This document shows positions 128 through 4,485 of a stretch of DNA of 44,582 nucleotides, piece after piece (the stretch's first letter is position 1; each line of letters opens with the position of its first letter). The notes under the pieces are model-generated. The model was not told the origin of the DNA and did not search any database. It saw nothing but the letters and a program-made list of their open reading frames with translations. The stretch is taken from the sequence record SRR22947725_4464; one strand, given 5' to 3'. The translations under genes and the position numbers were made by a program.

Positions 128-2310
128 AAACTTGTGTTTATAAAAAGTGAGAAGTTGATTCCTAAATCATCTGCAAAATAACGCATTCTGTTTAGGTAGT
201 CCCTGTACGACTCATCCAATAGATTATTAATCCTAAGACCAATCTTTGTTTTTTTGCTAAGGTTCATACTTGACTTAAGATGTAGTAAGTGATAATCCGA
301 TGGAGTTGTACTTACATCCAATGACACATATGAATCTGTTCGTGATATATAAACATCAAAATTATTATCTGGATAATCATTTTGCCTAGAAACATATTCG
401 CTTTCAACAGTTATCTCTAAGTTTTTATACTTGGGAATATTCCACGTAATTTCATGCTTTGCACTCAAAGGGGGTATGTCAATTAACGGGTTATTAGATC
501 CTTTTTCGAATCCTTTTGTGAGTGAAATTTTTTGATTAAAACTTAAGCTGTTAGCTAGATCTATATCTAAATCATAATCAAATCCGTACAGTGTAGTATC
601 GGTTTGTTTGTACTCCCAAACAGGAAAGGAACCCCTTATTGTAGTCCTAACTCCAGTGGGCACAATATATATGAAATTTTGAATGGTATTTAAGAATGGA
701 CTAAACGATGCGTGTAACCGCTTGTTTTTAAACTTGTATGAAAGCTGAATCTTTTGACCTACTTCTGAAGACAGGCTTAAATCACCAATTTCTATACGTG
801 CCGCTGCATGGTGTAAACCTTCGCTAAATAGTTCAGAAGGGTTTGGGTTTCTAGCCAACAACGCATAATTAAGGTATAAATCATGGTTCGTTCCTAGAGA
901 TAAATAACTACCCAAGCTAAACGAAAGATTACTGTAATCAAACGTTGGGTTTGCAAGAACCTGACTGTTTACTTCGTTAAGAATAATATTTGGATACAGA
1001 TTGCTGTAATTACGATCTTCCCATAATGATTTCCTATAATACTTGTAGGCATTGATGTGGGTGTAGTCGTAACGAATACCAAGCTCAAAAAGAAAGTCTT
1101 CTTCGAAAGCAAGATTTCCAATCGCATAGGCAGTTAGATCGTACTTCGTATAATCTGGAATAATTCTTCGAACACCCGTTTCTGGGTTGGCGTAATTCTT
1201 TTGATATTTTGATTCTAAACCAAGTTTTGTACTGAGCTTATTTGAAATGTTTGAAGTCAATTTAAGATTAAGCACATGCGTGTCAAGTTTTAGATCAATG
1301 GAGGGCTTACTGTTATTGCTACTACGCCTTATATCAAATTCAAATCTTCGGTTCTGCTGGTAATTATAGGAGATGTCAATTTTGCCAAGACTTGAGCGAT
1401 AGGTGTAATAGTTAAATTTGGCTACATGATGTTTGACTTGTTGTCTTGGTGCATTGATATCGTATGTGAAATCTTCAACTCGCAAGGGTAATGGGCTGTT
1501 TATCCCACGAATAAGATCTTCTGCAGTATGCAAATGTGACGCCTTAAGAATACCAACGTTTTTATTAAAAAAGGAATAGTAAAATTCCACTCCAGAACGG
1601 GTATTGTTTTTTCCAACTCTTGCTGAAATATTATTTTCACTATAGCCGGTATTGCTTAAGATGTAATCAGGAGATTGAAAATCCCCAAATCGTTTTAAGG
1701 TCCAGTTTAGGTTGGAAAACCAGCCACTTTTAAACCTATTTTCGAACTTATTAGCTAATGATGCGCCCCTGCCATTTGAAGAAGCTGTGAATAGCGTTTT
1801 TCCCGAAAAACCTACTTCTTTACGCACTTCTTTTGGTAGGGTTACCACAACGCCTCCTAGAGAATTTCCGCTGTACTCTAGCTTGTCAGCACCCGTGAGT
1901 ACAAAAATTTGGTCAACCGAGTTGATATCCAAACTTGGCTCATGTTCAACACCCCATTCCTGATCTTCAATTCGAACCCCATTATTGATAACAGCCACAC
2001 GGCTACTGTGTAACCCATGGATCACAGGTTTTGAGATTGTATTCCCTGTGTTTAAGGTAGATACTCCGTTAATGTGCTTGAGCACCTCTCCAAATGGAAG
2101 ACTTGACAAGTCTTCTAAATCCTTGTTTGTGAGTATGGTTTTATTAAGTGCCTTGGTGATTTTATTGAATTTATCATAAACAACAACCTCTTCCAATTCT
2201 TCTACTTTTTCTTGAGAAAAACCATAGAAGTTAGCAAGCAACACCATACAAAAAAAAGAAAATGGTGTAGCAATAGACTTTATCATTACACCATTTTTAA
2301 GAAGATTCAT
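124..2310 (-). CDS. TonB-dependent outer-membrane receptor, probably metal uptake
   Basis: Signal peptide, ELEEVVV TonB-box-like segment, plug motif KPVIHGL...QEWG.EH, barrel NNLLD..Y motif, C-terminal Phe; His clusters ASHLH and GLHH. Confidence 0.9.
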
Positions 2311-2324
2311 TTCGGAAAGTTTAA

Positions 2325-2873
2325 CTACTGAACTGTTACAGTAAATGTAGCGTCTATATCTGTATCTCCACCAACTTCAGCCAAAGTGCAATCATTGGGT
2401 TTTGTCGGCTCATGACGTAGTGTAAACGTAATCGTTCCGCTTCCTGCAGCTCCTGTCGTTAAATTGAAAGTAGTGCCCAAAGCTAATCCTTTGGTATCTG
2501 TGTTTAGATTATCAATAACTACGTCCGAAAGACCATTTAGTGTAAAAACAAACTGGTGTTCATCGCTTTCTTCGTTTACCTCGTCAGTAATGTTTTCTGC
2601 AGGGGATTCAAGTTCATTTAACAACACAATTACTCCAGAATAAACGGTATTTACAGCTAAAGGCCCAGAAACAGTAAATTCAGCTTCAGCAGAACCCATA
2701 CCATCTGAGTCTTGAGATTTTAATTCAACTACTGTTCCGGTTTGTGGCGTTAATGTTACAGTTAACGTTGTGATTACTTCTTCTTCATTAACTACTTCAG
2801 GTGTATCATCATCTTTACAGGATACATTGATGAATAACAATGCCAAGGTGGCATAAAAAAATACTTTTTTCAT
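2325..2873 (-). CDS. Acidic lipoprotein partner of the TonB-dependent receptor
   Basis: Lipobox NVSC followed by KDDD; EEEVITT, EHQF and LRHEP motifs that I recall from this TBDR-linked flavobacterial lipoprotein family; 14 nt from the receptor start. Confidence 0.8.
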   Translation of the reverse strand: MKKVFFYATLALLFINVSCKDDDTPEVVNEEEVITTLTVTLTPQTGTVVELKSQDSDGMGSAEAEFTVSGPLAVNTVYSGVIVLLNELESPAENITDEVNEESDEHQFVFTLNGLSDVVIDNLNTDTKGLALGTTFNLTTGAAGSGTITFTLRHEPTKPNDCTLAEVGGDTDIDATFTVTVQ

Positions 2874-2921
2874 TTTATAAATTTAATTGATTAATAAGGG
2901 TAAATAAGACGGAAGAGAGGT

Positions 2922-3224
2922 CTACATCGGGGGTGCCCTTAATAATTTACAACTAAATTTATTTTTTAAAATAGGATCAGTAAAAGCGTAAAGCTCGATT
3001 GAAAAATCAAAGAACCGAATACTATACTGGTAAAGAGCCGTTAGAGAGGAAAACTCAAATACATAGTCCAACAGATCACAGGAGGTGTCAATGGAGTGAA
3101 AGTGCAGTGAGTTTTCGTTACAGCTAGGGTGATCATGGTCGGATAATAGGTGTGTATGTTGTGCTAGGGTAGGGAGGAATAAAAACCCCACCAAAAGCAA
3201 CCGAACAAACAAAGTATTATGCAT
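2922..3224 (-). CDS. Small His/Cys-rich upstream ORF with C-terminal RAPP motif (DUF2946/CruR-like candidate arrest peptide), 100 aa
   Basis: Start moved to ATG 3224 (MHNTLFVRLLLVGFLFL, hydrophobic), then HTHLLSDHDHPSC...HFH...SC, ending LLRAPPM*. Confidence 0.75.
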   Translation of the reverse strand: MHNTLFVRLLLVGFLFLPTLAQHTHLLSDHDHPSCNENSLHFHSIDTSCDLLDYVFEFSSLTALYQYSIRFFDFSIELYAFTDPILKNKFSCKLLRAPPM

Positions 3225-3534
3225 TGTTTTTTGATTTAAATAAAAACCCCAGCCCCATGCGACTGAGCATCTTCTTTTCAAAGTTCCAAAAAAAATTGTA
3301 CTGACCAAATATAAATCCAAATAACACTAGTAATACTTGATAAATAGGGAAGATTAAAAATATACGGGCAAACCAATATACAAAAGGAGAAAACCTTTCG
3401 TGTGCAATTCCTAAAAAATCAGTCAATGGGGAGGCTAGTTTTGCTGCAGATGAGCCTGTGATAGCAAACACAACAAAGATGATGACCAACTGTGTGTTGG
3501 TTTCAATACCCCAGCGTTTTTTCAGTTTTTGCAT
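3217..3534 (-). CDS. Small membrane protein, DUF6787-like
   Basis: KLKKRWGI...VFAITGS...YQVLL...FGQ..FFW.FEKKM pattern; two hydrophobic segments. Confidence 0.75.
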   Translation of the reverse strand: MQKLKKRWGIETNTQLVIIFVVFAITGSSAAKLASPLTDFLGIAHERFSPFVYWFARIFLIFPIYQVLLVLFGFIFGQYNFFWNFEKKMLSRMGLGFLFKSKNNA

Positions 3535-4485
3535 TTATCCCAATAACTCCTTAATCTGTTGTGCTAGTTCCGTACCAATACGGTCTTGTGCTTCCATAGT
3601 AGCCGCTCCAATATGTGGCGTAAGCGAAATCTTTGGATGCATAAGTAGTTTTACTGCTGGAGTTGGCTCATTTAAAAAGGTGTCTAAAGCTGCAAAGCCC
3701 AAGTGATCGTTATCTAGTGCTTCTATAAGTGCTTCTTCATCAACCACGCCACCACGGGCTAAATTAATGAGTCCTGCACCTTCTTTCATTTTGGCCATTT
3801 CAGCGGCTCCAATAGTTGGTTTGTCTTGAGCAGGTACGTGAAGTGTTACAAAATCAGCTTGTTCCAAAACCTCATCAAATGATTTAATTTTCACTGATAC
3901 ATCAACGGATTGTCCATCAAAGAAATCTACAGCAATTGTTGCCGCTTCCATAAAAGGATCATAGGCAGCAACATCCATACCCAAACCAAGTGCCATTTTT
4001 GCAGTAGCTTGACCAATACGGCCAAAACCAATAACCCCAAGTGTTTTTCCACGAAGTTCGATACCACCAGCGTAAGCTTTTTTGAGGGATTTAAACTTAG
4101 TCTCTCCATCCAAAGGCATGTTTCGGTTTGAATCGTATAAGAAACGAACGGCTCCAAATAAATGTGCAAATACAAGTTCTGCAACAGATGCTGATGAAGC
4201 TGCAGGTGTATTGATCACATGAAGTCCTTTTTCACGCGCATAGTCAACATCAATGTTGTCCATACCAACGCCACCACGTCCAATTAGCTTTAACCCTGGA
4301 CACGCATCAATAAGTTCCTTACGTGCCGTTGTAGCACTACGGACCAAAAGTCCTGTGATGTTGTTTTCATTGATGTAATCAACAAGTTGTTCTTGAGCTA
4401 CATTGGTGGTAGTTATCGTAAAACCAGCTGCAGCTAGTGCATCTTGTCCAGTTTGAGAAACTCCGTCGTTTGCGTGAATATTCAT
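3535..4485 (-). CDS. serA: D-3-phosphoglycerate dehydrogenase (short form without ACT domain)
   Basis: VRSAT, GVGMDNID, GFGRIG NAD motif, NLARGG, TPHIGA; adjacent to serC. Confidence 0.9.
   Translation of the reverse strand: MNIHANDGVSQTGQDALAAAGFTITTTNVAQEQLVDYINENNITGLLVRSATTARKELIDACPGLKLIGRGGVGMDNIDVDYAREKGLHVINTPAASSASVAELVFAHLFGAVRFLYDSNRNMPLDGETKFKSLKKAYAGGIELRGKTLGVIGFGRIGQATAKMALGLGMDVAAYDPFMEAATIAVDFFDGQSVDVSVKIKSFDEVLEQADFVTLHVPAQDKPTIGAAEMAKMKEGAGLINLARGGVVDEEALIEALDNDHLGFAALDTFLNEPTPAVKLLMHPKISLTPHIGAATMEAQDRIGTELAQQIKELLG

Follow-up and report, generated by a model that had tools for sequence, protein, structure and literature searches.

The metal-sensing arrest peptides studied experimentally so far are two proteobacterial proteins, and both respond to copper. 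Here we describe a small open reading frame (ORF), referred to below as the leader, that resembles such peptides and precedes the genes for a lipoprotein and a TonB-dependent receptor (TBDR) in a stretch of 44,582 nucleotides from sequence record SRR22947725_4464; this whole stretch is called the window. CruR (Bp2923) of Bordetella pertussis is described as the prototype of DUF2946 (PMC9426467), and its translation is reported to arrest in vitro, with toeprints that place the third and fourth residues of its motif in the P and A sites of the ribosome (PMC12992588). In DUF2946 proteins the CXXC and RAPP motifs are 45 residues apart, a distance reported to be conserved within one or two residues, and changes of ±5 residues impair regulation (Roy et al., PMC9426467). 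The text of that paper available to us gives the taxa as proteobacteria, a few Planctomycetes, Firmicutes and Deinococcus, and does not name Bacteroidetes. CutF of Rhodobacter capsulatus, also DUF2946, is described as a nascent-chain sensor that is exported during its translation, carries a proline motif at the C-terminus and senses in the periplasm; a stem-loop shields the ribosome-binding site of the next gene and is melted by the stalled ribosome (bioRxiv 10.1101/2025.02.05.636593).

Two other groups of leaders are relevant. According to a 2025 survey, small ORFs that encode a signal sequence and RAPP or RGPP are enriched upstream of TBDRs in Gram-negatives generally (EMBO J, PMC12992588), and such ORFs before TBDRs are, as a class, already known from it. 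RAPP-like leaders from Bacteroidales and Flavobacteriales located upstream of sec genes are reported to arrest translation in vitro (PMC10987492).

The leader starts with an ATG at position 3224 and ends with a TAG at 2922-2924 on the minus strand. An earlier note on this DNA had described a 100-residue ORF with a hydrophobic N-terminus, a His/Cys cluster and a C-terminal RAPPM followed by the stop, and the ORF and its translation bear this description out: the C-terminus is L95-R96-A97-P98-P99-M100-stop, and the cluster (residues 23-49) includes HTH, DHDHPSC, HFH and SC. The note took the ORF for a candidate metal-sensing arrest leader of Bacteroidota. This reading is supported: R[AG]PP and the His and Cys residues are conserved, and the family combines a spacer of fixed length, the absence of a predicted fold beyond one helix, a near-constant linkage to TBDRs, and an RNA hairpin that covaries between loci. 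That the system is of the CruR/CutF kind is well supported, and we think it probable that the leader works through a metal-modulated stall at R[AG]PP which unmasks the start region of the lipoprotein and receptor genes.

Like CruR, the leader is a small ORF directly upstream of a TonB-dependent transporter, and has an export-type N-terminus, a Cys-based metal motif, a spacer of about 45 residues and RAPP a few residues before the stop. It differs from CruR in having a single Cys and a His-rich cluster, in being located in Bacteroidota, in not being the first gene of its operon, in the length of the intergenic region (48 nt in the window versus 162 bp), and in that the tail of the ORF pairs with the next start region where CruR uses a Rho site. 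CutF, in turn, is reported to stall at PPP, to need EF-P and to have CxxxC, whereas the motif of the leader is R[AG]PP, and the region masked in the window is an AU-rich start without an evident Shine-Dalgarno sequence. Copper is reported to induce the CutF stall and so to switch on a detoxifying oxidase; the target of the leader is an importer, and therefore the opposite sign would be expected. By analogy, the anatomy of the leader seems to match CutF most closely, and its motif, ruler and receptor target seem to match CruR.

The ORFs of the 2025 survey share with the leader a length of less than 300 residues, a motif near the C-terminus, a signal sequence and a downstream TBDR. The survey is motif- and annotation-based; its text, as available to us, does not mention this Bacteroidota family, the His/Cys cluster, the ruler or the hairpin, and members of the leader family may be catalogued in it (PMC12992588). 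ApdA, ApdP, SecM and the Flavobacteriales leader uDF_RQH also have a RAPP-like arrest element at the peptidyl-transferase centre together with an N-terminal localisation signal, but are described as monitoring or regulating Sec/YidC components, without a metal-ligand cluster (PMC10987492). What appears to be new here is the Bacteroidota family, its frequency in Flavobacteriaceae, its His-rich single-Cys subtype, a 44-45-residue ruler outside DUF2946, and a covarying hairpin that masks the start. We met no description of this Bacteroidota family in literature searches, which were made for other purposes and were not aimed at the family.

The leader protein has no match in Pfam or NCBIfam, and belongs to a large family that is modelled by neither and that current domain libraries miss. 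A word-indexed search found seven relatives of 100-101 residues (43-94% identity), a related-locus search with an 8-sequence alignment gave only seven close loci, and an exhaustive phmmer search of 1.84 billion representatives found 54 relatives at E<=0.001. A profile of the family matches 238 of 301 Flavobacteriaceae genomes, sampled from the family of a Flavobacteriaceae metagenome-assembled genome, mostly with one copy each. It matches 43 of 401 genomes sampled across Bacteroidota; the matches outside Flavobacteriaceae are weaker, and some of those genomes have two to four copies. A second profile identified 136 proteins at E<=0.001 among 881 candidates, giving a total set of 238 unique sequences. 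The longest frame over the leader opens at a TTG at 3320 (132 residues); the Met equivalent to the ATG is the start in all seven close homologues. A chance ORF is excluded as an explanation by conservation. We note that one locus (L043) has a profile match in the genome search (E 2.2e-21) for which the ORF scan found no matching ORF, and an unusual start codon or a frameshift may be the cause.

In an alignment of 61 members, H43 and C49 are invariant, P18, H25, H30, C35, H41, R96, P98 and P99 are at least 90% conserved, and the approximately 45 residues between the cluster and the motif show no sequence conservation. The earlier note had proposed that conservation of the His residues be checked, and had named loss of R[AG]PP from orthologues beforehand as a possible refutation. 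The histidines (H25, H30, H41 and H43) are conserved as just described, and R[AG]PP is present in 232 of the 238 unique relatives; in 221 of these 232 it lies one to five residues before the stop. Within a smaller set of 93 unique sequences the motif is near the C-terminus in 87 (43 RAPP, 44 RGPP), three have the variants RAHP, RDPP and RGSP, and three lack it, one being cut at 69 residues and two having unrelated C-terminal tails. The codons used for the motif in 65 distinct DNA loci include all six for Arg, all four for Ala, all four for Gly and all four for Pro; selection therefore acts on the peptide and not on a DNA word. Leu directly precedes the Arg in 59 of the 65 loci. From the amino-acid frequencies of the window itself, R[AG]PP is expected at 6.4e-6 per position, and it does not occur in the window's 36 long ORFs. 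RAPP and RGPP are also among the most avoided four-residue words of Bacteroidota proteomes, with mean biases of 0.137 and 0.173 (PMC12992588, supplementary file 1).

The spacing between the cluster and the motif is as constant as its sequence is variable. In the more distant Bacteroidota members a CxxC begins at the position of the window's C49; it is retained in register in 171 of the 232 relatives, and the other 61, including the window leader, have a single Cys. In the window the second Cys is replaced by Leu (C49-D-L-L52), as the earlier note had remarked in pointing to the absence of CxxC, and this loss is a derived state of the window's clade. From the second Cys of CxxC to the Arg there are 45 residues in 143 members and 44 in 25, which together make up 168 of the 171 members with CxxC; the first Cys is 45-48 residues from the Arg in 88 of 89 members, and the equivalent distance in the window, L52 to R96, is 43 residues. 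The agreement of this 44-45-residue spacing with that of DUF2946 is the strongest link between the leader family and CruR.

Judged by Pfam's own model, the leader is not a member of DUF2946 (PF11162, gathering cut-off 23.7 bits). PF11162 does not match the window leader at E<=0.1, and has no match above its cut-off in any of the 301 Flavobacteriaceae genomes, where there are six matches at E 0.03-0.1, four of them with internal stops. It gives two matches (E 0.07) among the 61 aligned members, and three of 10 Flavobacterium-type relatives align over their full length with scores of 15.7-16.4 bits, below the cut-off. With respect to the features that define DUF2946, the leader has the C-terminal RAPP a few residues before the stop, its family has the gap of about 45 residues, and an N-terminal export signal is indicated by the predicted helix and by hydropathy; the conserved CXXC is absent from the window leader. 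A further DUF2946 feature is the first place in an operon with a TonB-dependent transporter and/or PepSY_TM gene; on this point the receptor linkage of the family (36 of 36 and 22 of 28 loci) and one weak PepSY_TM-like gene after a second leader copy stand beside the DUF6787 gene that overlaps the leader in the window. Two leads to remote homology are the UniRef label 'DUF2946 domain-containing' on five among the 120 relatives listed, and the presence in the ESM Atlas of PF11162 on 12-36% of the members in 13 of 30 named neighbour clusters. The two families may share a common descent or may have converged on the same physical ruler.

The second line of evidence lies in the RNA. In the window, a fold of positions 2843-2984 (minus strand) pairs the end of the leader with the region just before the lipoprotein ATG, with a minimum free energy of -25.0 kcal/mol and a z score of -3.24; none of 200 shuffles folds as well. 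In other loci, complementarity is often seen between the codons that follow R[AG]PP and the bases immediately ahead of the next start codon, and the sequences involved differ from locus to locus. This was assessed by alignment-free tests, limited to the 51 loci with an intergenic region of 100 nt or less. The pairing of tail and start region covaries between loci: the mean energy between the leader tail and the start region (-28..+12) is -7.60 kcal/mol for cognate pairs and -4.37 kcal/mol for non-cognate pairs, and none of 20000 permutations reaches the cognate mean. The same holds when the tail is replaced by a 30-nt footprint centred on the presumed P site (-7.52 versus -5.24; 0 of 20000), and after de-duplication to 35 loci (-7.01 versus -4.92; 0 of 20000).

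A ribosome placed at the motif is calculated to loosen this structure. The mean cost of opening the start region (-20..+10) over the 51 loci is 10.27 kcal/mol for the free RNA and 6.28 kcal/mol with a 30-nt footprint at RxPP, compared with 10.29 kcal/mol for a mock footprint placed 45 nt further upstream. The real footprint lowers the cost by 2 kcal/mol or more in 38 of the 51 loci, the mock in three. For the window itself it falls from 13.1 to 9.5 kcal/mol. Within the window clade (six sequences), the last 15 codons and the intergenic region have 81-82% invariant columns, versus 37-66% in neighbouring coding DNA; there are no compensatory changes inside this clade because the hairpin is invariant there. 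The masked region is AU-rich and has no evident Shine-Dalgarno sequence. Translation initiation in Bacteroidota largely proceeds without Shine-Dalgarno pairing. No Rfam family matches in 2300-3700.

These observations suggest a mechanism of the following kind. The N-terminal hydrophobic helix would target the nascent chain to the membrane or the Sec translocon, and the ribosome would pause at R96-A97-P98-P99, as expected from the known behaviour of RAPP and RGPP motifs. At this pause some 47-75 residues would separate the His/Cys cluster from the peptidyl-transferase centre, and the cluster would have just cleared the tunnel of the ribosome and the translocon, which would explain the fixed length of the spacer; the sensing compartment is thus presumably the periplasmic face of the translocon. 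Binding of metal by the cluster, or its metal-induced folding, would alter the pull on the chain and hence the duration of the stall. The stalled ribosome would occupy part of the hairpin whose other arm covers the lipoprotein start region, so that a long stall would open this region and the lipoprotein, and probably the receptor, would be made. When metal is scarce the stall would persist and synthesis would be on; when it is sufficient the ribosome would be released and synthesis would be off, which is the logic expected for an importer. We lean slightly towards this direction, from scarcity through stalling to expression.

Several observations weigh against this reading. The earlier note described the leader as an upstream ORF, and it does precede the genes for the lipoprotein and the receptor; a DUF6787 gene upstream overlaps its start, so that it is neither first in its operon nor a classical first-gene leader. 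The window leader lacks the CxxC that carries copper sensing in CruR, and the Pfam DUF2946 model does not recognise it. The modelled effect of the footprint is less than 2 kcal/mol in 13 of the 51 loci. In the window, nucleotides -20..+3 of the start region pair mainly with codons 88-93, just outside the 30-nt footprint (pairing share 0.70, versus 0.16 with the footprint), and with one footprint the probability that the start region is unpaired increases only from 0.15 to 0.23. A single stalled ribosome covers only the inner half of the window stem, and a trailing ribosome would be needed for full opening. RNAalifold found no consensus pairs when 13 orthologous junctions were aligned with MAFFT; the tails are of unequal length, so that such an alignment loses the register, and we therefore rely on the alignment-free permutation tests. 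Lastly, the intergenic region is longer than 100 nt in seven of 58 loci, where another mechanism may act.

The other mechanism that has a precedent is transcriptional. CruR is reported to regulate through Rho, which terminates transcription after the leader and before the receptor gene (PMC9426467), and the same arrest leader could act in this way here: the stalled ribosome would block Rho at the C-rich, G-poor intergenic site, and its release would lead to termination before the lipoprotein and receptor genes. The composition of the window's intergenic region (Table 1) is of this type, C exceeds G in the intergenic region of 41 of the 58 loci, the window clade conserves the unpaired hairpin loop, and in the seven loci with long intergenic regions a CruR-like mechanism is as plausible. 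However, the median intergenic length is 47.5 nt, with 44 of the 58 regions at most 60 nt long, which is short for a Rho loading site, and action of Rho leaves the covarying pairing of the start region unexplained. We therefore regard a purely transcriptional output as unlikely, although start unmasking and a Rho mechanism could coexist. The hairpin loop itself (2901-2935, minus strand) is C-rich and contains only one G. In the window clade its conservation equals that of the stems, which a simple hairpin model leaves unexplained, and the loop may be a binding site for Rho or for a protein.

The leader might also be a real small protein, a membrane-anchored or periplasmic metal-binding chaperone or accessory of the receptor, in which R[AG]PP would serve structure or sorting and the hairpin would reflect only ordinary translational coupling. 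The conserved cluster and export-type N-terminus are what such a protein would have, in 29 of 64 loci its gene is internal to an operon, after DUF6787, and a released peptide could have its own function. AlphaFold2, run with the 61-sequence alignment, gives the leader one helix at residues 3-28, with a predicted local distance difference test score (pLDDT) of 85-93, and coil beyond it (mean pLDDT 68.9, predicted template modelling score 0.28). The maximum 15-residue hydropathy is at least 1.6 in 59 of the 61 members and the N-terminal flank is net positive in 46, and the N-terminus would thus fit a signal anchor or a signal peptide. The lack of a predicted fold, the spacer of about 45 residues, whose length is fixed and whose sequence is not conserved, a motif avoided by proteomes (PMC12992588) that is here near-invariant beside the stop, and the dependence of the pairing energy on the position of the stall site, as seen in the mock control, all argue against a metal-binding protein, which we consider quite improbable. 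A FecR-like anti-sigma role was set aside, the protein being too small and without such a domain. A secretion monitor of the SecM/ApdA type, whose stall would report Sec or membrane-insertion activity and not metal, shares the N-terminal export signal and C-terminal RAPP-like motif with ApdA, ApdP and the Bacteroidota/Flavobacteriales leaders upstream of sec genes (PMC10987492), but it is a very improbable explanation here, given that the downstream genes are receptors, lipoproteins and one COG0523 operon instead of Sec or YidC components, and that the conserved His/Cys cluster would be left unexplained.

For a metal-modulated arrest leader, the question is then which metal is sensed; the earlier note had suggested that it may be one other than copper, such as Zn, Ni or Co. 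Zinc is the leading candidate, at a little under an even chance; copper is a real possibility of lower standing, and any other metal is doubtful. In favour of zinc, a genome with four leader copies has one paralog that heads an operon of a COG0523 GTPase, MogA, ThrRS, a dCTP-deaminase-like gene, FolE and a Fur-family regulator, and this operon has the appearance of a zinc-starvation module. Clusters of COG0523 genes with paralogues of zinc enzymes, ThrRS among them, are reported to mark zinc-starvation regulons, and alternative GTP cyclohydrolase I isozymes to be another response to zinc limitation (PMC2770081). ZnuD is the top NCBIfam match of one associated receptor (E 1.6e-50, far below the cut-off) and is in the top three matches of the other four ZnuD/heme-type associated receptors scanned; the His-rich inserts of the lipoproteins were also counted toward zinc. 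On the side of copper are the CxxC of the family and its resemblance to DUF2946, together with a second leader copy that is followed by a weak PepSY_TM-like gene (E 5.7e-5) beside a gene with an HMA domain. Comparisons of the receptors with solved structures and with NCBIfam do not separate zinc, copper and heme types. The paralog ahead of the COG0523 operon (L094:900-6900, minus strand) has CxxC, ends in LRAPPLFLK and lies about 290 nt upstream of the operon.

A wider picture, which we hold to be less likely than not, would make the family the first zinc-sensing nascent-peptide switch: the cluster at the Sec translocon would read periplasmic zinc, the 44-45-residue ruler would set the R[AG]PP stall, and an outer-membrane zinc importer would have its start, which lacks a Shine-Dalgarno sequence, unmasked by this stall. 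This switch would be nearly universal in Flavobacteriaceae, and duplicated in some Bacteroidota to serve zinc-starvation modules (receptors, ABC systems and a COG0523 chaperone operon). With members in about four of five sampled Flavobacteriaceae genomes, the family is a candidate for a widespread control of metal uptake in abundant marine and soil bacteria. Its members form a natural set of sensors, some with and some without CxxC, and share a fixed molecular ruler and a covarying hairpin; the family could be used to test how the ribosome reads a ligand outside the cytoplasm and whether such sensing extends from copper to zinc. For annotation, the leaders would mark which TBDRs are metal importers.

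The features of the locus are collected in Table 1.

Table 1. Features of the leader and its surroundings in the window.
Feature	Part or size	Position	Strand	Basis
Candidate arrest-type leader ORF	100 amino acids + stop	2922..3224	minus	ORF list, homologues, alignments
Predicted hydrophobic N-terminal segment (signal anchor or signal peptide)	codons 5-21	3162..3212	minus	hydropathy, AlphaFold2
His/Cys cluster, presumed metal sensor	codons 23-49	3078..3158	minus	conservation
Spacer, variable in sequence, fixed in length	codons 50-95	2940..3077	minus	alignments; predicted coil, pLDDT 55-75
Presumed stall site	codons R96-A97-P98-P99	2928-2939	minus	P98 = P site, P99 = A site by analogy with CruR
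Hairpin 5' arm	codons N88 to A97	2936..2962	minus	fold of 2843-2984
Hairpin 3' arm, covers translation start region	-27 to -4 before lipoprotein ATG	2877..2900	minus	fold of 2843-2984
Intergenic region, C-rich, G-poor	48 nt (11 C, 1 G)	2874..2921	minus	base count
Lipoprotein, presumed surface 'lid' or metal-binding receptor partner	182 amino acids	2325..2873	minus	lipobox Cys19, conservation
TBDR	728 amino acids	124..2310	minus	Pfam Plug + barrel
DUF6787 small membrane protein		3217..3534	minus	Pfam PF20584, E 6e-31

The position directly upstream of the lipoprotein and receptor genes, as given in the earlier note, is confirmed: the lipoprotein gene begins 48 nt downstream of the leader, and the TBDR gene follows 14 nt after it. 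The linkage extends to the family. Each of the 36 distinct close loci has, within tens of nucleotides after the leader, a TBDR (27) or a lipoprotein and a TBDR (9). Of 28 more distant loci, 22 have a receptor within the 1.5-kb downstream flank; four of the other six were fetched with wider flanks, and in three of these the receptor is the second or third gene, after an ABC (ATP-binding cassette) ATPase or two DUF4625 lipoproteins. In the fourth, the leader paralog heads the COG0523 operon.

The window lipoprotein is orthologous (E 1e-30 to 1e-54) to the product of a gene that follows a 799-residue receptor in other loci; receptor and lipoprotein thus belong to one module, in which the window clade has the two genes in reverse order. 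Its invariant residues are H106, H154, D126, D172, E30 and E32, and some orthologues have His/Asp-rich inserts. The lipoprotein family has no Pfam model. The predicted structure is a β-sandwich (pLDDT 81.7), for which Foldseek found nothing in the PDB at E<=0.001 and returned generic β-sandwiches only. Small lipoproteins beside non-SusC receptors in Bacteroides have been proposed to be 'lids' (bioRxiv 10.1101/2023.03.17.533168). The window TBDR has weak NCBIfam matches to heme/transferrin, ZnuD and copper receptor models, all below cut-off, and its nearest solved chains are ZnuD and then OprC, both weak.

Upstream, the end of the DUF6787 gene overlaps the start of the leader by 8 nt, and the gene itself abuts homologues of serA and serC. 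In 29 of 64 loci DUF6787 is the gene immediately before the leader, and genes for DUF937 and DUF6146 precede it in many of these. A scan for Bacteroidota-type promoter motifs found a single weak TAnnTTTG (3306-3313) that lacks a -33 element and to which we attach no weight. Inside the 3' end of the DUF6787 gene, about 25 nt before the leader ATG, there is a terminator-like hairpin with a T-run (3248-3267, minus strand); 2700-3700 contains five terminator-like sites, against 0.4 expected from shuffles.

FolE is a zinc enzyme, and in all six loci of the DUF6787 type L069, L072, L074, L076, L077 and L078, an ORF of 102-115 residues without a Pfam family and folE lie downstream in convergent orientation, after the receptor-lipoprotein pair in L078 and after the receptor in the other five; msrA then follows in five of the six, L077 being the exception. 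One locus (L100:995-5650, plus strand) has two leader-type ORFs; a receptor comes after the first, and two DUF4625 lipoprotein genes come after the second. In four Flavobacterium-type loci (L084, L086, L089 and L091), a gap of 220-280 nt separates the leader from the genes that follow it, which are those for an ABC ATPase, a siderophore-type receptor and two ABC-2/DUF3526 permeases. The receptor of L089 is above the NCBIfam cut-off of TIGR01783, those of L084, L086 and L091 having been scanned with Pfam at most, and this gene set suggests a metallophore system.

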